Below are positions 1 to 9,716 of a DNA stretch of 9,716 bases, piece after piece. Source of the DNA: a virus (taxonomy: Duplodnaviria; Heunggongvirae; Uroviricota; Caudoviricetes). The notes below the pieces were generated by a model. The model was not told where the DNA came from. It did no database searches and worked only from the letters and a program-made list of their open reading frames with translations. Numbering within the stretch: position 1 is the stretch's first letter; each line of letters begins with the position of its first letter. The stretch lies in the IMG/VR virus record IMGVR_UViG_3300029504_000019, one strand, 5' to 3'. The translations under genes were made by a program, and so were the position numbers.

Positions 1-2474
1 ATCTGCAAGGTCCGGCAACTTCCGACTCCGGTATAGAAGTTAACCAGAATATAGCTGTCGCCAGAGCGGGTGACATTGTAAGCGCCTGATTCGGCATTCC
101 ATGGAACGCCCCCATCCGCATCGGCATACGCATCCGTTGCTCTTCTGGCAAAAGCAGCCACATGCGCGGCGGTTAAAGTGATATCAGTAGAACCATCAAA
201 TGGAACACCGGATATTTTTCTTGCAGTCTGAAGTTTTGTAGCAGTTGCAGCATTACCAGTGGTGTTCTGATTACCCGTAGTGTTTACACCTGGAAGGTTA
301 ATATTTGCAGAACCGTCGAAAACAACTCCACCGATAGATCTTGCCGTCTGCAATTTCGTGGCTGTACTTGCATTACCATCCAATGAACCAGTTAATCCAC
401 CTGTAACAGACAACGGACCTGAAACTGTTCCTCCGGTTGTTGGCAGTGCTCCAATATCTAACGGCGTCGGTTTCTGATGTGTGCTATACATCGTATAAAC
501 AACACCATCGGTAACGCTGGAAGGCTTACTCGCTGAATATGTTGGCGATGTATAAATAGAAACTGTCGCATTTGCAGTACAATCCCAATGGATATTTACA
601 CGAGTCGCATAATTGCCAATCTCAACGTAAATATCATATGTATCGCCGGATGTGTTGATCCAGGCGAAATTCGTTAATCCGACGGCTGTACGCTTCCACA
701 AAGCCCCGGTAATTCCTTTGGGGTTTCCATTGCCTGCTCGTAGAACCAGTTCTGAAATGCCTGCCTGATGTGGGGAACCGACGTTGTAACCAGCGCCACC
801 AATCAATGCGATGTAAACGATGGAACTCGCTTGTGGCATGGTAACCGTAGCCAGTTTGAACCACCCAGCCCCGCCAGAGAAAGACATCGTTACTGAATTT
901 AAAGTACCAATATCTTTCGGCGTTAATGTTATATCCGCAGTCAGTGCTTTTCCGTTAACTTTTCGGTTAGATGGCACCCTGCTATTCGCATTGTCATTGG
1001 CTGCTTTAACTGCTTTTGGCGTTGCGGCCAGCGATTCACTGGTGCTATCAACAGCACTGCTAAGTTTCACAACACCTTTAGTTGTAAGGCTTGCGTCTTC
1101 CATCGCAACTGCACCGGCAATCTCTTCAGCACGATCAGCAGCAGCTTCCGCACGGGTCGCAGCGGATTCAGCAGCAGTTTTGCTCTGAGATGCTGCCGTC
1201 GCACTGCCTGCCGCCTCTGTTGCTTTCGTGGATGCCGTCGTGGCGCTGCCCTTCGCTGCTGACGTCTGTCTGGTCGCCTCATCTTTTGAAGCAGACGCAG
1301 ATGATGCCGATGACGCTGCCGAACTGGCGGACGATGCGGCTGCCGTTTTTGAGGATTCTGCACGGGTTTCCGACGCTTTCGCATTCGTTTCGGATGTCTT
1401 CGCTGCGGAAGCAGACCTCGCTGCTGCGCTGGCCTGTACAGCGGCTTCGCCAGCCTTCGTTGTGGCTGTTGAAGCGGACGATGCAGCACTTTCTGCCGAT
1501 TTTCCGGCGGCGGTGGCACTGGCTGAGGCCTGCCCGGCACTTGTTGACGCGGCACTGGCAGACGACGCAGCCGCTGTTTTTGAGCCTGCCGCAGCTGAGG
1601 CACTCTGTCCCGCTGCCGTTTCAGAAGCCTTGGCGTTCGTCTCGGACGTTTTTGCCGCCTTCGCAGAATTTGCTGTCGCCGTTGCCGAGGAAGCTGCGCT
1701 GCTGGCGCTCGAGGCTGCGCTCGTTTCTGATGATTTTGCCGCCTCTTTTGAAGCCGACGCATCCCGGGCTGAGGTGGCAGCTTCTGACGCTTTCGTGGTC
1801 GCGGTGGATGCTGAAGTGGCTGCTGATTGTTGTGACGCTGCCGCATTCGTTTCTGACGTTTTTGCCGCAGCGGCACTGGTGGCCGCCGCGCTTTTTGAGG
1901 ACTCTGCAGCGGCAGCACTTTTTGATGCTTCAGTGGCCTTTGCTGATGCCGTTCCTGCGCTGGAAGACGCTGACTGAGCCGACGAAGCGGCCTGTCCGGC
2001 TGACGTGCTGGCTGCGCGTGCTGAGCCTGCAGCATCAGTCGCATGGGTTGCCGCCTCACGGGCAGATGTGCCGGCATCGCCGGCTGACTTCTTCGCGGCT
2101 GCCGTGTTCTGTGCCACTGCGGACGCGTTACGCGCCACCTCTTCCACCATCAGTTCAAAACGGCGCAGTGCCTCTGGCCGGACATCATCCTCCGTCATTG
2201 CACCGAGGAAATCATTCAGTGTGCCCGGCTTTGAGTCCTCATATACGGTGATAATCCCGGCGTGTGACGGCGGGAATCCCTCCACCAACAGACTGACGCT
2301 GTACTGACCATACTCGACGTCCATTGTGTAACGCCCGGCTTCATCCGGGTTTTCTGAGGCCACTGTGTTCACCACCACCGTGGTGCTGTTGCGCCTGGCC
2401 TTTAGCTGAATGGTGCAGTTTTGTATCGGCTTACCTGCGCCATCTTTCAGTACACCTGAAATCCGTACTGCCAT
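1..2474 (-). CDS. stf: Side tail fiber protein Stf, 5' portion (ATG at 2474..2472; at least 824 codons, no stop before window start)
   Basis: Hand translation of the minus strand from the ATG at 2474 is open to position 3; an in-frame stop lies just upstream at 2516..2514. The N-terminus (MAVRISGVLKDGAGKPIQNCTIQLKARRNSTTVVVNTV...YGQYSV...GFPPSHAG...TVYED) matches my recollection of the lambda/Rac Stf N-terminus; it is followed by a long Ala/Ser/Thr-rich region and the conserved tail-fiber motif TTKGVVKLSSAVDSTSESLAATPKAVK. GGGGGG sits 3 nt upstream of the ATG as a Shine-Dalgarno. Not in the supplied ORF track because it lacks a stop in the window. Confidence 0.85.
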   Translation of the reverse strand, partial: MAVRISGVLKDGAGKPIQNCTIQLKARRNSTTVVVNTVASENPDEAGRYTMDVEYGQYSVSLLVEGFPPSHAGIITVYEDSKPGTLNDFLGAMTEDDVRPEALRRFELMVEEVARNASAVAQNTAAAKKSAGDAGTSAREAATHATDAAGSARAASTSAGQAASSAQSASSSAGTASAKATEASKSAAAAESSKSAAATSAAAAKTSETNAAASQQSAATSASTATTKASEAATSARDASASKEAAKSSETSAASSASSAASSATATANSAKAAKTSETNAKASETAAGQSASAAAGSKTAAASSASAASTSAGQASASATAAGKSAESAASSASTATTKAGEAAVQASAAARSASAAKTSETNAKASETRAESSKTAAASSASSAASSASSASASKDEATRQTSAAKGSATTASTKATEAAGSATAASQSKTAAESAATRAEAAADRAEEIAGAVAMEDASLTTKGVVKLSSAVDSTSESLAATPKAVKAANDNANSRVPSNRKVNGKALTADITLTPKDIGTLNSVTMSFSGGAGWFKLATVTMPQASSIVYIALIGGAGYNVGSPHQAGISELVLRAGNGNPKGITGALWKRTAVGLTNFAWINTSGDTYDIYVEIGNYATRVNIHWDCTANATVSIYTSPTYSASKPSSVTDGVVYTMYSTHQKPTPLDIGALPTTGGTVSGPLSVTGGLTGSLDGNASTATKLQTARSIGGVVFDGSANINLPGVNTTGNQNTTGNAATATKLQTARKISGVPFDGSTDITLTAAHVAAFARRATDAYADADGGVPWNAESGAYNVTRSGDSYILVNFYTGVGSCRTLQ
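190..370 (-). repeat. Tandem ~40-codon tail-fiber repeat inside stf (two copies of the motif G-N-A-[AS]-T-A-T-K-L-Q-T-A-R-x-I-[SG]-G-V-x-F-D-G-S-x-[DN]-I)
   Basis: Stf residues about 700-720 (NASTATKLQTARSIGGVVFDGSANINL) and 740-765 (NAATATKLQTARKISGVPFDGSTDITL) repeat at a 40-residue spacing; the underlying DNA segments around 210-250 and 330-370 are visibly similar. Confidence 0.5.
1125..2117 (-). repeat. Ala/Ser/Thr-rich low-complexity coding region of stf with dispersed ~30-bp near-identical direct repeats
   Basis: Stf residues about 120-450 are almost entirely A/S/T/K/E. The motif AAKTSETNA recurs at residues about 202, 272 and 357, matching near-identical DNA blocks at 1381-1409, 1633-1665 and 1846-1876. 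The region is GC-rich and open in several frames on both strands, which explains the spurious 249-, 336- and 386-aa track ORFs. Confidence 0.6.
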
Positions 2475-2485
2475 ATTCCCCCCAC

Positions 2486-2511
2486 AAAAAAGCCCGCCTG
2501 AACCGGCGGGC
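2486..2511 (-). terminator. Rho-independent terminator downstream of the lom fragment (minus strand)
   Basis: Read on the minus strand, a perfect 7-bp GC-rich stem (2511..2505 pairing with 2498..2492, 6-nt loop) is followed immediately by a run of six T (2491..2486). It lies 28 nt after the lom stop and just upstream of the stf Shine-Dalgarno and ATG. Confidence 0.6.
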
Positions 2512-2538
2512 TGTCATAACACTGTGTTACCTGGCTAA

Positions 2539-2814
2539 TCAGAATTTATAACCGACACCAACGATGAAACTGTTGGTACGCCAGTCACCGCTGCCGGAGC
2601 CTTCATAAGCGACGTCAACGGCCACGGATTCGGTCGGGTTAAACTGCACGCCAGCTCCCCACGCCAGAGACGTGTTGCTGTGGCGACCGTCATCACTTCC
2701 GGTCAGCACATCGTGCGTTTTCCCCTTGTTGTCAGTTACGCGGATATAATCCCCGGAGAAAGTCGACACACGGCTGTAAGCCATAACCAGTTGCAGCAAC
2801 CTTTGACGCTCGTT
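2539..2814 (-). pseudogene. lom: lom (Lom/Ail/OmpX-family outer membrane protein), 3' fragment only; signal peptide and N-terminal barrel strands absent
   Basis: The translation ends ...SLAWGAGVQFNPTESVAVDVAYEGSGSGDWRTNSFIVGVGYKF, matching the lambda Lom C-terminus (...AYEGSGSGDWRTDGFIVGVGYKF) and the terminal Phe typical of beta-barrel outer membrane proteins. The frame is closed by a stop at 2817..2815 and the track ORF begins at a TTG, so only about 85-90 of roughly 200 codons are present. Confidence 0.8.
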
Positions 2815-2987
2815 TCACACCTGCCGAACTGTGAATATTGAATCCCTCCAGACGCCCCAACACGCCCTCACGCAGTAGCTGTTCAGTGCCGGATTCATTC
2901 ACTTTAAACAATACAGACTGTTTTCCGCGCAAATTAGCAATGGCAGTGGAGCCAAGCACCATCTGCAGATCGGTTGTCGGTGCGCCG

Positions 2988-3284
2988 TTAACCAGCCTCA
3001 TAAATTGCCAGCTCGTTCAGCTCTCCGGAGAGACTGGTAAACATGCTGTTAATAGCAGTGCGGTTAACCTTTCTGACGCTCGCCAGAAGTGACTCCAGGC
3101 GCTTAACGGTAAAATTACCTGGATCGAGGCTGTCCAGTGCTATCAGCAGGCGAGCAGTAAGTTCCGCATCGCTGTCATTCAGTATTTTCACCATTCTGGC
3201 AGCCACGCCAGTGCTATAGCGGGATATCCAGACTGCATGAGCAATTGATTCATCACGCAGCCGTTCATTCACGGTTTGCATCAT
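2988..3284 (-). pseudogene. Stub (98 codons) of the gene that follows portal, possibly the N-terminus of a head-morphogenesis/minor capsid protein, ending prematurely
   Basis: Its ATG (3284 or 3281) overlaps the portal stop (3267..3265) by about 20 nt, typical translational coupling in a morphogenesis operon, but the frame closes after 98 codons and no capsid or tail genes follow. The functional assignment is a guess from position. Confidence 0.35.
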
Positions 3285-4671
3285 TGATTTCCATCAGCAT
3301 TACACTCTGATTTTTTAATTCATCGATCACTTCCTCTGGACGGGAATCCTGATCGATAAATTTCAACGCCTGCAACACCCGAACCGCATCAATCTGACGT
3401 ATATCACCGCCCTGACGCAATGACTGAACAGCCAGCGCGGAGGATGAGTCAAACACCTGGGCAGATACATCCAGTTCAGTGCGCACATCCACATTGCCAC
3501 CGCAACTCTCTCCGATCCATTCCGCCATTATCTGGAGAATATTATCGAGGGCATCTTCGAGGGAGTTCGCCATTGTATAAAGCGGCGAGTTTTCCTGCAT
3601 TCGCTCTTCATTAGTCTGATCAACAGATTTGGTGGATGTATTTTCAGCACGCAGAAGTTTAGCGCCGGCATGACGCATCTGATTTTCCAGCTTCTCAAGT
3701 GATGTTTCGCCAGATTCTATCGCTGCGCCACTATGTTCAACATATTCGAGGCCATTTTTTGTTCTGTCCTCAAAAATCGTAGCGGTGGATGCACCAACCG
3801 TCAGTTCTTCATTCCTGTCCAGCCCGTAGGCCACCAGCAATGGAACGCGGGTAACATGAAGAATATTGTCCTGCTCGCTCTGGCTTTGCCAGTGCTTGAT
3901 ATTCAGCAAGCCAAGATTAAGCAATGGCGGTGTACCACGCATAAATCCTGTTTTCTTCGTGTACAGTGTTACCAGAGGAATATCATCACGGCTGGTATTC
4001 CATGACTCATGAAGCGTCCAGACAGATTCGCCATTAGTGCCTTCGCTACGTCGATAAATTTCAACTCGACGGGGCATAATATGGCGGATCTGCTCCACCT
4101 TCTTCTGCCCGAAATCATCACCATCAATAATGATGACCTCTTTTATACGCAAATCAGTGAGAACAACTTTCCCTTTTTCAACTTTCGATTTCCATCCAAT
4201 AACCTGGCGTGGATTCAGCATCGTAACGTACGGACGACCACCGGTCGCGTTTTCATCGGCTTTTGTACGAATCTCTTTCATATCCGTTCGTGGATAGTCC
4301 ACCAGCGCATGTGCCACACCATACTGAAATGCGAGGCTGAAAAATTGCTGCGCCCACACATCCAGTCGGCTCCCCTCCATGTCGATATTTTCTGCATATT
4401 CCCTGATTTTTGCCGGCGTTTCCTCACTCAATACTGTCGGCTCTGCAAATATGCGCCCAATATTTTGCTTGATGCTTTCTTCATACACAGGAAGTAGCGT
4501 AGCCACAGACAGGCGTTTTTTATAAGCGTCTTCATCTTCGTTAGGCCATTTTGGGAGATAATTTTCCCCCTGCCTGCGCATTTCAAGCGTACCGCCCATC
4601 AGTGCGTCGTTAATATCCCACGCCTCCAGCATATCGTTATAGTCGAGGTTGGGTGTTGATATATCAGCCAT
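3265..4671 (-). CDS. Probable phage portal protein (468 aa)
   Basis: Its ATG (4671..4669) lies 2 nt after the large-terminase stop (TAA 4676..4674); the size of about 470 aa, acidic C-terminal region and position directly after TerL are typical for portals. No motif-level confirmation is possible without a search. Confidence 0.6.
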   Translation of the reverse strand: MADISTPNLDYNDMLEAWDINDALMGGTLEMRRQGENYLPKWPNEDEDAYKKRLSVATLLPVYEESIKQNIGRIFAEPTVLSEETPAKIREYAENIDMEGSRLDVWAQQFFSLAFQYGVAHALVDYPRTDMKEIRTKADENATGGRPYVTMLNPRQVIGWKSKVEKGKVVLTDLRIKEVIIIDGDDFGQKKVEQIRHIMPRRVEIYRRSEGTNGESVWTLHESWNTSRDDIPLVTLYTKKTGFMRGTPPLLNLGLLNIKHWQSQSEQDNILHVTRVPLLVAYGLDRNEELTVGASTATIFEDRTKNGLEYVEHSGAAIESGETSLEKLENQMRHAGAKLLRAENTSTKSVDQTNEERMQENSPLYTMANSLEDALDNILQIMAEWIGESCGGNVDVRTELDVSAQVFDSSSALAVQSLRQGGDIRQIDAVRVLQALKFIDQDSRPEEVIDELKNQSVMLMEINDANRE

Positions 4672-7226: not shown

Positions 7227-8684
7227 TTAGGAGCGCCAAAAAAAACCTGAAAACAATATAATAACAGGATAAATTTCAAGGCGACCAAGAATCATAGCTA
7301 TGCACATTAAACATTTTGCAATGTCATTAAGCACTCCGAATGACGATGCAGTAGCCCCAAAACCTAATCCCATATTATTAATACATGCAGCCACTGTTGC
7401 AAATGATGTAAGAAAATCATATCCCATACCATTTAACACCAGTATAAAAAACACCGTGAAGAGAGTATAAAGAAAAAAGAAACTCCATACAGACCTCATT
7501 ACACGATCTGTAACTATCTTCCCTCCTACATTTACACTCAACAACGCTCTGGGATGAGAAAGCTGATTTATCTCGTGTTTGCTTTGTTTGAAAAGTATAA
7601 GAAATCGAAGTGACTTAATTCCACCACAAGTTGAACCTATACATCCCCCAAAGAAACTTGACAACAGCAAAAACACTATCGTGTGCGTGGGCCAACTTGC
7701 ATAATCCTGCGTAGCTAAACCATTATCAGTGAGCATGGAGCTGGCAAGAAAAAACGAATGAATAAAACTTCCATGCAAGTCATACATACCTATATGCCAG
7801 ACCTGGAAAGAGGTAACAATGATCACCCCTAAGGCTATTAACAGAAAGAAACGAAGTTCAATATCTCTGATTAAAGGTTTTATCGTTTTCCTGCTAATAA
7901 CAATATACCAAAGAGTGAAGTTGAAAGCCGATAGCAGGGAAAAAGAACCAGCCACCAGCTCAACCAAATAGTTATTAAAATATCCGATACTCTCGCTATG
8001 AGTTGAGAAACCACCAAGCGAAACTGTGGAAATCCCGTGACAAATAGCATCAAACAAAGGCATTCCTGCAAGTCTATAACAGACAATACAAGCAATACCT
8101 AATAAAGAATAAGTTATCCACAGTGTCCGTGACGTATCGGCCAGGCGGGGAGTGAGTTTGTCATCCTTAAATGGCCCCGGCATTTCTGACTGATAAAGCT
8201 TTGCACCACCAATACCCAATAATGGCAATACAGCAACCGCCAGAACAATAACTCCTAAACCACCTATAAAATTTAACTGTGACCGATAGTACAAATATGC
8301 CCGAGGTAATGAACTAACATCATCAATTACAGTTGCTCCTGTTGTTGTTATTCCAGAAACCCCTTCAAACAGAGCATCAATGAACGTTAAATTAAGTTCT
8401 GAGTCAATCCATAAAGGGAATGCACTAATAACAGAAAACAAAATCCAAAACATTACAATTATAATAAACCCATCACGGGTACGTAATTGAATGCCAGATT
8501 TCTTAGTTGTATACCACGCTCCGCCACCAATGCAAAAAAATATAACGAAAGTTATAAAGAAAACGAACAGGCTTTTTTCTTTATAAAACAATGCTACAAC
8601 CATTGGTGGCAACATTGAAAGACTATAGAGCCAAACCAGGAACCCACACATATGAGTAACAACTCTTACATGAGATGTATTCAT
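7227..8684 (-). CDS. trkG: TrkG/TrkH-family potassium uptake transporter (about 485 aa from the ATG at 8684)
   Basis: Polytopic membrane protein with TrkH/KtrB selectivity-filter-like glycine motifs (GVSGITTTGATV, TVSLGGFSTH, CINNMGLGFG); the sequence from MNTSHVRVVTHMCGFLVWLYSL matches my recollection of E. coli TrkG. The track start at 8702 is a TTG six codons upstream; the ATG at 8684 is preferred. The gene is visibly AT-rich relative to its neighbours. Confidence 0.9.
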   Translation of the reverse strand: MNTSHVRVVTHMCGFLVWLYSLSMLPPMVVALFYKEKSLFVFFITFVIFFCIGGGAWYTTKKSGIQLRTRDGFIIIVMFWILFSVISAFPLWIDSELNLTFIDALFEGVSGITTTGATVIDDVSSLPRAYLYYRSQLNFIGGLGVIVLAVAVLPLLGIGGAKLYQSEMPGPFKDDKLTPRLADTSRTLWITYSLLGIACIVCYRLAGMPLFDAICHGISTVSLGGFSTHSESIGYFNNYLVELVAGSFSLLSAFNFTLWYIVISRKTIKPLIRDIELRFFLLIALGVIIVTSFQVWHIGMYDLHGSFIHSFFLASSMLTDNGLATQDYASWPTHTIVFLLLSSFFGGCIGSTCGGIKSLRFLILFKQSKHEINQLSHPRALLSVNVGGKIVTDRVMRSVWSFFFLYTLFTVFFILVLNGMGYDFLTSFATVAACINNMGLGFGATASSFGVLNDIAKCLMCIAMILGRLEIYPVIILFSGFFWRS

Positions 8685-8685
8685 A

Positions 8686-8760
8686 TCTAAATATTCTTTC
8701 AATTATAACCACCTTGCTGCAATATTATGATTATACTGTATAAAATTTAACTCCTCTTAG
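8686..8760 (-). promoter_or_regulatory. AT-rich region upstream of trkG with candidate sigma70 -10 hexamers (possible autonomous promoter)
   Basis: The 119-bp gap between the Rz stop and trkG carries two perfect TATAAT hexamers on the minus strand (8707..8702 and 8735..8730), but neither has a convincing -35 element at 16-18 bp. Speculative. Confidence 0.25.
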
Positions 8761-8821: not shown

Positions 8822-9286
8822 TTACTTTAAACACTGCTCGGTTATGTATTGCTGAGCACCTTCAAGTTGGGCCTGCATCATTACCAGTCGTTCCCGGAGG
8901 GTGAAATAATCCCGTTCAGCGGTGTCTGCCAGTCGGGGGGAGGCTGCATTATCCACGCCGGAGGCGGTGGTGGCTTCACGCACTGACTGACAGACTGCTT
9001 TGATGTGCAACCGACGACGACCAGCGGCAACATCATCACGCAGAACATCATTTTCAGCTTTCGCATCAGCTAACTCCTTCGTGTATTTTGCATCGAGCGC
9101 AGCAACATCACGCTGACGCATCTGCATGTCAGTAATTGCCGCGTTCGCCAGCTTCAGTTCTCTGGCATTTTTGTCGCGCTGTTCTTTGTAGGCGATGGCG
9201 TTATCACGGTAATGATTAACACCCCATGACAGGCAGACGACGATGCAGATAACCAGAGCGGAGATAATCGCGGTTACTCTGTTCAT
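8822..9286 (-). CDS. Rz: Rz i-spanin (inner-membrane spanin subunit)
   Basis: Near-identical over most of its length to lambda Rz as I recall it ([21 protein letters not shown]...[44 protein letters not shown]...[45 protein letters not shown]...). N-terminal transmembrane helix then coiled coil. The ATG at 9286..9284 overlaps the endolysin stop (TGA 9285..9283) as ATGA; the track start at 9298 is a GTG four codons upstream. Confidence 0.9.
8881..9066 (-). CDS. Rz1: Rz1 o-spanin (outer-membrane lipoprotein), fully embedded in Rz in the +1 frame
   Basis: 61-aa ORF (ATG 9066..9064) with a lipobox (LVVVGC), a Pro-rich tract ([19 protein letters not shown]), and the classic embedded-gene arrangement inside Rz. 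Confidence 0.85.
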
Positions 9287-9716
9287 TGCTGACCCCACAA
9301 ACAGATTTCACGCTCAATCTCACGACGAGTCATGAGACCTTTCCATTGCTTACCGCCAGCATATGTCCAGCGACGTAGCTGATCACATGCGCCTTTGATA
9401 TCGCCCTGGTTTATTTTGCGAAGAAGCGTCGATGTTCTGAAATTGCCAGCACCCACGTTGTAAACGAATGAGTAAAGAGCGCCGCGCGTTGTTTCCGGTA
9501 TATCGACTTTGATGTACGGGTTAATTTGTCTGGCGACCGTGGCAAGGTCTTTATTCAAGAGTGTTTTGCATTCTGCTTTGGTATACGTTTTACCGAGCAT
9601 GATGTCTTTTCCTGTATGCCCGTGACATACAGTCCATACACCAACAATATCTTTGTATGGTATGTAGCTGACACCTTCCAGACCATCGTTACCACTTGGG
9701 CCAGTGATTAACACTG
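9283..9716 (-). CDS. R: Endolysin, T4-lysozyme-type (GH24) of the P21 R / SAR-endolysin kind; 5' end (SAR signal-anchor) lies outside the window
   Basis: The translation (...[36 protein letters not shown]...CLWGQQ) matches my recollection of the P21 R21 SAR endolysin, with the Glu/Asp/Thr catalytic positions (GLEG, YKDIVG, WTVCHG) present. The frame is open to the window edge, and the first track codon is an internal GTG (Val), so the gene is truncated by the window and not biologically. Confidence 0.9.

Follow-up and report, generated by a model that had tools for sequence, protein, structure and literature searches.

Introduction

Side tail fibres set the adsorption speed and the strain range of lambdoid phages. 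In gpStf of Ur-lambda, a "proximal coiled-coil domain 102-393" leads into a hinge (residues 394-422) of ~124 degrees, and the gp37-like tip binds OmpC, in lambda as in T4 (PMC12617516). The mosaicism of tail fibre genes is established, having been described since 1992 in the literature cited in PMC3945230; for Mu, P1, P2 and T4, the works cited there are Haggard-Ljungquist 1992 and Sandmeier 1992/1994. Lambda recombines experimentally with the stfR gene of the Rac prophage in a Red-dependent manner (PMC3945230), and engineered lambda-P2, lambda-K1F and lambda-K5 Stf chimeras are functional (PMC11338833). The gene considered here is stf in a stretch of viral DNA of 9,716 nucleotides (nt) (IMG/VR record IMGVR_UViG_3300029504_000019; Caudoviricetes), referred to at its full length as the window, which is a Rac-like defective prophage of Escherichia coli with its genes read in reverse orientation. 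Window positions 1..2474 (-) hold the first 824 codons of this Rac-type side tail fibre gene as one open frame, and the gene extends beyond the left edge of the window. It is very probable that this stretch represents the 5' three quarters of a gene composed of independently exchangeable modules, which have been combined by recombination. Positions along the gene are given as stf nt, and positions along the protein as amino acids (aa).

The stf Gene is a Mosaic

The window gene is a member of the PF08400-led lambda Stf/Rac StfR family of side tail fibres. With 2 mismatches (99.9% identity), its 2474 nt match the beginning of a 1092-aa coding sequence in E. coli PK5074, where the locus reads J-lom-stf-tfaR-pinR and adjoins ydfK/uspF/ompN. 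The lambda Stf/Rac StfR gene order is recovered in two parts: a lom fragment lies directly upstream in the window, and J and tfa are seen in the PK5074 locus, outside the window. The first-pass annotation had placed the gene correctly, as an 824-codon open frame on the minus strand running from 2474 to the window edge, and it had likened the N-terminal region to that of lambda/Rac Stf, which is borne out. The collar or anchor domain, together with a short linker, comprises aa 1-100 (2175..2474 (-)). Residues 1-134 match the full profile (1-134) of PF08400, "prophage tail fibre N-terminal", with an E-value of 1e-71, and aa 1-94 match the solved collar domain of lambda Stf (StfN, PDB 9e7m/9mgh) with an E-value of 5e-49.

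Comparison of the window gene with stfR of E. coli K-12 reveals a series of steps in DNA identity. The identity is ~85% over stf nt 1-300 and 94-95% over stf nt 301-1260, i.e., the N-terminal domain is less similar than the region directly downstream of it (~85% vs ~95%), and therefore a breakpoint is placed near stf nt 300. It falls to 58-63% over stf nt 1321-1440, a segment that includes part of a conserved block ending in the motif ATPKAVK; stf nt 1500-2217 cannot be aligned with K-12 stfR; and identity is 89-100% over stf nt 2218-2474. As the homology to K-12 resumes at stf nt 2218 (aa 740), the exchanged segment is an internal cassette of ~245 aa and not the whole distal region. A domain swap at a tail fibre hotspot had been proposed in the first-pass annotation for everything beyond ATPKAVK: the different relatives of the segments and the recurrent junction agree with that proposal, whereas its extent does not.

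Each relative shares a different part of the gene. Lambda has only stf nt 1-909 in common (85%) and lacks 315 nt of the rod; the lambdoid phage phi458 has stf nt 1-2282 in common at 96%; the phages Cyrano (108 kb, with parA nearby, and J followed by a 1341-aa fibre) and CMS-2020a share stf nt ~531-2300 at 94-95%, with other N- and C-termini; and many lambdoid phages share stf nt 1-1313, 1-1487, or 1-1487 plus 2218-2474. In E. coli genomes, similarity ends most commonly at stf nt ~840, ~1310-1330 and ~1358, and that of the distal part ends at several further points. The best-matching PHROG also changes with the segment of stf, so that a segment-wise comparison, as had been suggested, does give different best relatives.

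The modules were compared in a segment-by-allele identity matrix over 80 IMG/VR alleles. N-terminal domains 100% identical to that of the window are paired with K-12-type or other cassettes, and window-type cassettes also occur with N-terminal domains of 86% identity. One allele (L038) has the window-type rod end and block with a K-12-type cassette, and three (L042, L043 and L083) have the K-12-type rod end with a window-type cassette. Thus, the modules assort freely among alleles.

At least 80% of the stf query is found in one place in 422 of 5,426 complete E. coli genomes. The N-terminal segment is present in 3414 complete genomes and the rod in 4180, the distal 1094 nt being full-length in only 392. 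The combination of modules in the window is one that already exists in hundreds of sequenced genomes and in phage phi458.

The Proximal Rod Changes Length in Whole Heptads

The region that follows the collar was called a linker in the first-pass annotation, which is not what it is. Residues 121-460 consist of 39% alanine, 23% serine and 12% threonine, and the 74% that these make together agrees with the richness noted earlier; the residues are, however, arranged as a strict array of about 50 uninterrupted heptads of the form AxxSAxx (aa 113-462; 1089..2138 (-)), which corresponds to the published proximal coiled coil of Ur-lambda. The array is evident from the heptad layout, from the autocorrelation of residue identity, in which each of the 20 strongest lags is a multiple of 7 (77 and 154 foremost), and from Fourier analysis of the positions of alanine, which has peaks at 3.5 and 7.0. 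The rod of the window is collinear with that of lambda, in which ATPKAVK (residues 379-385) likewise stands at the rod end. By analogy with Ur-lambda, the rod would be a coiled-coil trimer.

Rod length was surveyed as the distance from EEVARNA to AATPKAV in 80 IMG/VR loci sharing the N-terminal domain; a list of homologous proteins, all short or partial (<445 aa), was left out of this survey. The distance is 372 residues in most loci, including the window and K-12, and the rod is without insertions or deletions in 3,626 complete E. coli genomes. The variants differ by -98 aa (14 heptads; L009), -105 aa (15 heptads; lambda), -112 aa (16 heptads; L044, L046, L049 and L058), +105 aa (15 heptads; L020) and -217 aa (31 heptads; phage 500465-3). 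All five classes are whole numbers of heptads, for which the chance with random in-frame lengths is about (1/7)^5.

The first-pass annotation had proposed that near-identical 30-bp repeats could drive length variation. When all pairs of 30-nt windows in the rod were compared, the best pair matched at 25 of 30 positions (83%) and none at 26; the families returned by a repeat search are 64-88% identical; and Tandem Repeats Finder reported trivial short arrays only. Weak repeats are in excess, with 13 pairs matching at 24 or more of 30 positions against 0.67 expected when codons are shuffled, and every repeat offset is a multiple of 21 nt: they reflect the periodic protein. The deletion in lambda begins beside one weak repeat, yet it spans 315 nt and not the repeat offset of 231 nt. 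Thus, the variation in rod length is real, and it is quantised by the register of the coiled coil rather than tied to near-identical DNA repeats; with a best pair of 25/30, such repeats as the cause of length change are unsupported.

A scan of genome contigs added no new class of rod length: it returned a few Escherichia loci and otherwise mostly lambda-like, low-coverage contigs in unrelated assemblies, e.g. of Leeuwenhoekiella, Pseudomonas, Shewanella, Desulfosporosinus, Oceanobacillus and Kitasatospora. The stf on these contigs (L088-L099, L101-L105, L107, L110, L111, L113 and L117) is 87% identical to the query; several of the contigs are about 48.4-48.5 kb long; and L088, the only one of these loci to be translated, has the 401-aa orf-401 form of lambda. 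They look like contaminating phage lambda control DNA.

Three open reading frames (ORFs) overlap the rod in another frame or on the opposite strand: 1067-2077 (-), 1091-2251 (+) and 1228-1977 (+), of 336, 386 and 249 aa, respectively. The periodic GCN/TCN codon composition is their most likely source; lambda and phi458 carry the same artefact in their annotations, as orf206b and Orf45, respectively.

The Adaptor Block is a Recurrent Crossover Zone

The rod ends in a conserved adaptor block (aa 454-505; 960..1115 (-)), a recurrent recombination junction that contains TTKGVVKLSS..ATPKAVK at 1005-1085. The sequence TTKGVVKLSSAVDSTSESLAATPKAVK lies at residues 464-490 (window 1085..1005), where it had been reported, and the departure from lambda Stf after the motif was also read correctly: beyond ATPKAVK the window differs both from lambda (VVMDETNRKA...) and from K-12 StfR (SAYDNAEKRLQKD...). 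The block is shared more widely, since aa 454-505 match residues 105-156 of the Mu tail fibre S (PDB 5yvq/8ju3). It has been kept as protein, yet the DNA identity to K-12 is only 58-63%, and 58% in the motif ATPKAVK itself.

Among the 80 IMG/VR alleles, at least seven unrelated sequences follow ATPKAVK, and one allele (L034) is a hybrid within the first residues past the motif, AANDNA being joined to EKRLQKD. Together with the reciprocal combinations of block and cassette, this identifies the ATPKAVK region as a true recurrent crossover zone. The window allele itself, compared with K-12 stfR, switches elsewhere: DNA homology already fades at stf nt ~1260-1320 (aa ~420-440), some 50 codons before the motif is reached. 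Thus, ATPKAVK was rightly singled out as a junction, although it is not where this allele parts from K-12.

The block is a unit of 44 residues, present once in the window and in 1, 2, 3 or 5 tandem copies in other alleles. Two, three or five copies are seen in L009, L013, L014 and L119, those of L009 starting at positions 385, 429, 473, 517 and 561; the sequence "AAYDLANGKYTAQDATTAQKG", which commonly follows ATPKAVK, is where a second copy of the block begins.

The Central Cassette has a Jelly-Roll Core

The central cassette (aa 497-739; 258..986 (-)) is unrelated to the K-12 StfR and lambda Stf sequences at this place and has no DNA that can be aligned with either. It is 94-96% identical in nucleotide sequence to segments of phi458 and of the fibres of the ~108-kb phages Cyrano and CMS-2020a. 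Pfam has no match for it, even at E<=5, and a sequence search of the PDB has none for aa ~506-740; it matches PHROGs 3299/21552/6722. The K-12 cassette, in contrast, carries PF21446 (Gp34_trimer) at aa 663-762, which the window cassette lacks.

A first AlphaFold2 (AF2) model of the cassette, built from 51 close homologues, had a mean predicted local distance difference test score (pLDDT) of 55, gave nothing significant in Foldseek, and was discarded. With a deeper alignment of cluster representatives, the mean pLDDT is 87, with >90 in the core, and the model has a beta-sandwich of jelly-roll type over aa ~526-661 (core aa 526-661; 492..899 (-)). In structure searches this core has weak similarity to carbohydrate-binding modules and galectins. 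It can be likened to the beta-sandwich domain of Pantoea stewartii WceF (PDB 6tgf) and of Acinetobacter phage tailspikes, at 9-11% sequence identity; unlike these proteins, the window cassette is without a beta-helix depolymerase body. In WceF the beta-helix is followed by a jelly-roll of eight strands that matches in size (PMC7949094), and this jelly-roll is presumably the part aligned with the cassette. The cassette is probably a knob on the fibre shaft and may bind glycan.

Domains related to the cassette are found at very different positions in fibre proteins, and occur in P1/SSU5-like, ST64B-like, Felix-O1-like and T4-like phages. One protein (P0121, 791 aa) has two identical tandem copies of the jelly-roll, at residues 145-339 and 462-656, with a short fibre motif after each; thus, the jelly-roll module can be stacked.

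The right-hand end of the cassette is marked by two fibre motifs, GNAxTATKLQTAR..GVxFDGSxxIxL (aa ~697-733 and ~737-772; 159..386 (-)), which start at aa 700 and 740 in the window, there being one copy in K-12. Similarity to Cyrano ends at stf nt 2300 and that to K-12 begins at stf nt 2218, so that the crossover lies at window ~175-257. The right border is thus within the second GNAATATKLQTAR motif.

The Distal Domain and the Tip

The last part of the gene within the window (aa 773-824; 3..158 (-)) is the start of a distal region that is common to K-12 StfR (91-100% nucleotide identity) and similar to Mu S/S'. In the full PK5074-type allele, aa 773-860 match a chain of Mu S/S' (PDB 8ju3) and, outside the window, aa 862-1092 match the tip of T4 gp37 (PDB 2xgf, E 3e-82). 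The tip of a near-identical full allele, also outside the window, has the signatures of Collar and of HxH repeats (PF07484 and PF03335), with tfaR downstream. This gp37-type tip (aa 862-1092) is probably the part that binds the receptor.

At least five different tips accompany the window-type cassette, of which four are distinguished by the head loop between the HxH motifs and one has a C-terminus of the S74-chaperone type. The cassette and the tip are, therefore, exchanged independently of each other. The tip loop between the HxH repeats (L001, i.e., the PK5074 locus, 11900-12279, compared with L003 and the IMG/VR alleles) is wholly different among the otherwise near-identical PK5074, L025, L035 and L042; here, outside the window, the gene has another hypervariable site, independent of the first.

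How the Alleles May Have Arisen

The fibre encoded by the full allele can be pictured as a series of modules. A lambda-type collar (aa 1-~100) would anchor the trimer to the tail; a rod of ~350 residues, a coiled coil with an alanine core, would set the reach of the fibre, its length shifting in whole heptads; and a conserved adaptor of ~44 residues, ending in ATPKAVK, would take the place at which Ur-lambda Stf has its hinge. There would follow the cassette of ~245 residues with its jelly-roll core, one or two short conserved fibre motifs, a Mu-S-like distal domain and, beyond the window, a tip of the T4 gp37 type, most likely the receptor-binding part, which would depend on the Tfa chaperone. 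New alleles would arise by homologous recombination in short conserved stretches, i.e., the rod, the ATPKAVK block and the GNAxTATKLQTAR motif, which lambdoid prophages, SSU5-like phage-plasmids and Mu/P1/P2/T4-type phages share among fibre genes that are unrelated in other respects. Homologous recombination is proposed because similarity is graded at the borders, because reciprocal recombinants exist, and because measurements show lambda and Rac stfR to recombine by way of Red (PMC3945230).

Exchange might instead be the work of a Pin-family invertase encoded nearby, which would act on crossover sites within the fibre gene, a route put forward for the fibres of Mu, P1 and p15B. In the complete locus pinR does stand directly after tfaR, and Sandmeier 1994 is cited in PMC3945230 for invertase-driven exchange of stf segments. 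A search for the invertase core consensus AAACCNNGGTTT (gix/cix/pix), allowing up to one mismatch, found none in the window or in the stf-tfaR-pinR genes of PK5074, the sole similar match at the PK5074 locus falling in J, at chance level; furthermore, DNA similarity at the junctions is graded over 80-200 nt, which is the pattern that homologous exchange would produce, and it is homologous exchange that has been measured for lambda and Rac stfR. Invertase action is, therefore, very improbable here. Still less credence, indeed hardly any, can be given to a history without recombination, in which the distal part simply diverged faster than the proximal part under host-driven diversifying selection. 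Tail fibre tips are known targets of such selection, and protein conservation relative to lambda does drop along the gene; but a cassette that cannot be aligned with K-12 or lambda has 94-100% DNA identity in fibres with other N-termini, similarity is back to 91-100% past it, block types and cassette types are found in all four pairings, and the K-12 cassette bears a different Pfam domain, Gp34_trimer. Fast divergence is rejected on account of the reciprocal recombinants and of the near-identical cassettes in unrelated fibres.

What the exchange means for the receptor is a separate matter. According to the first-pass annotation, the swap at ATPKAVK implied altered receptor specificity, i.e., it would have replaced the receptor-binding part, so that the sequence in the window would confer a receptor other than that of lambda Stf or K-12 StfR. 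The cassette is, indeed, wholly different from those of K-12 and lambda, its beta-sandwich core resembles carbohydrate-binding modules and galectins weakly, and related domains are found in annotated distal long tail fibre subunits of T4-like phages and in Felix-O1-like fibres. Nevertheless, the protein is again homologous to K-12 StfR from aa 740 on; the C-terminus of the full allele is a tip of the T4 gp37 type, through which lambda and T4 bind OmpC; the same cassette goes with at least five tips, one of them a C-terminus of the S74-chaperone type; and its occurrence further within other fibres, and as two tandem copies in P0121, fits a module of the shaft. A replaced receptor-binding part is thus unlikely: the probable binder lies outside the window and varies independently of the cassette, and the sequence in the window does not establish a change of receptor.

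Several points weigh against the modular, recombinational reading preferred here. The heptad rule rests on five classes of insertion or deletion only; the prophage in the window is without capsid and tail genes, so that its stf may be drifting, though the frame is intact; and a search with the AAACCNNGGTTT consensus is a limited test of a Pin-type mechanism.

The Prophage Context

Endolysin and Rz/Rz1 genes lie at 8822-9714 and trkG at 7227-8702; leftwards, between trkG and the portal gene (3265-4671), there are a ParB-like gene and then the small and large terminase genes. Between the portal gene and the lom fragment are gene fragments amounting to about 750 nt, and no capsid or tail genes occur there in the window. 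The upstream neighbour of stf is a C-terminal fragment of lom (Ail/Lom; 2539..2799 (-)), which covers only profile positions 119-199 of the 199 of PF06316. Between it and the start of stf is a terminator-like hairpin (2491..2512 (-)) with an 8-bp stem, including 7 G-C pairs, followed by a T-run. Besides the lom fragment, window 2539-3284 holds two ORFs (89 and 98 aa), neither of which matches Pfam; one of them overlaps DNA annotated elsewhere as a phage minor head protein.

Not one of the 5,426 complete E. coli genomes contains the region 2380-3400, comprising the portal end, the minor-head fragment, the lom fragment and the start of stf, in one piece. Therefore, this junction is an unusual deletion form of a Rac-like prophage. 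With the head and tail genes of the window prophage gone, its stf cannot serve the prophage itself; it makes most sense as a reservoir allele, on which incoming phages could draw, and not as a component of a working virion. Defective prophages retain intact fibre alleles that are available to incoming phages (PMC3945230).

The G+C content of trkG and its surroundings (7227-8702 and flanks) is 30-43%, compared with ~45-55% in neighbouring phage genes and ~60% in the stf rod; the low value fits trkG as foreign cargo in Rac-type prophages. Within the Rz gene (8822-9298 (-)), a 61-aa ORF in another frame (8881-9066 (-)) has a lipoprotein-like start and a proline-rich tail, which is the classic embedded Rz1 spanin arrangement.

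What the Module Map Adds

The finding is real but ordinary: tail fibre mosaicism is well known, and current understanding is not changed. The small additions are the quantisation of rod length in heptads, the copy number of the 44-residue adaptor, and a jelly-roll cassette domain without a Pfam family. The modularity of fibres has already been exploited to retarget lambda-based delivery particles (PMC11338833), and a residue-level map of the modules of a common natural allele indicates at which points chimeras can be joined and the fibre left intact; of use here are the crossover zones, the heptad rule of the rod and the transferable jelly-roll cassette.

Perhaps, though only tentatively, two of these things are undescribed: discrete tuning of fibre reach, by whole-heptad changes of the rod and one to five adaptors, and the jelly-roll as a glycan-binding knob. 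The rod would be an array that keeps its heptad register perfectly, its natural variants differing by 14, 15, 16 and 31 heptads, or roughly 15-32 nm, and the reach of the fibre may be tuned stepwise in this manner. The jelly-roll, which is widespread, absent from Pfam and in its predicted structure closest to the WceF/tailspike domain, could be a lateral glycan-binding knob, i.e., a second specificity borne on the shaft.

Comparison with Known Systems

Ur-lambda gpStf (orf-401 + orf-314 in lambda PaPa) resembles the window protein in its PF08400 collar, its Ala/Ser rod, the ATPKAVK at the rod end and the position of the gene after lom, and resembles the full window-type allele in its gp37-like tip and Tfa partner. 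The rod of the window is 105 aa (15 heptads) longer, and DNA identity is only 85% over stf nt 1-909. From ATPKAVK to the tip, Ur-lambda has a hinge and a distal domain of intertwined chains, whereas the window-type allele has the jelly-roll cassette and a Mu-S-like domain.

With StfR of the K-12 Rac prophage (1120 aa), the window-type allele shares the type of chromosomal prophage, the gene order (trkG ... lom, stf, tfaR, pinR), the rod of 372 aa (EEVARNA to AATPKAV; 94-95% DNA identity), the distal domain and the tip family. The differences lie in the N-terminal domain (~85% DNA identity), the adaptor block (58-63%), the number of GNAxTATKLQTAR motifs (two in the window and one in K-12 StfR), the head loops of the tip and the cassette, which in K-12 is ~330 aa with PF21446 Gp34_trimer and in the window is an unrelated jelly-roll of ~245 aa without a Pfam family.

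The fibre of the SSU5-like phage-plasmids (CYRAN_21 of Cyrano, and CMS-2020a; PHROG 3299) shares stf nt 531-2300 at 94-95% DNA identity, i.e., most of the rod, the adaptor block, the cassette and the first fibre motif. It differs in its first ~175 aa and in a longer C-terminal part (1341 aa in total), and belongs to a 108-kb plasmid-prophage with parA.

The fibres of Mu (S/S'), P1 (S), P2 (H) and T4 (gp37) are those of contractile-tail phages and have other N-terminal anchors; Mu and P1, moreover, switch tips by an invertase, whereas no crossover site matching the core consensus was found for the window stf. Nevertheless, these mosaic fibres have blocks in common with the window allele, and follow the same principle of exchange at conserved motifs.

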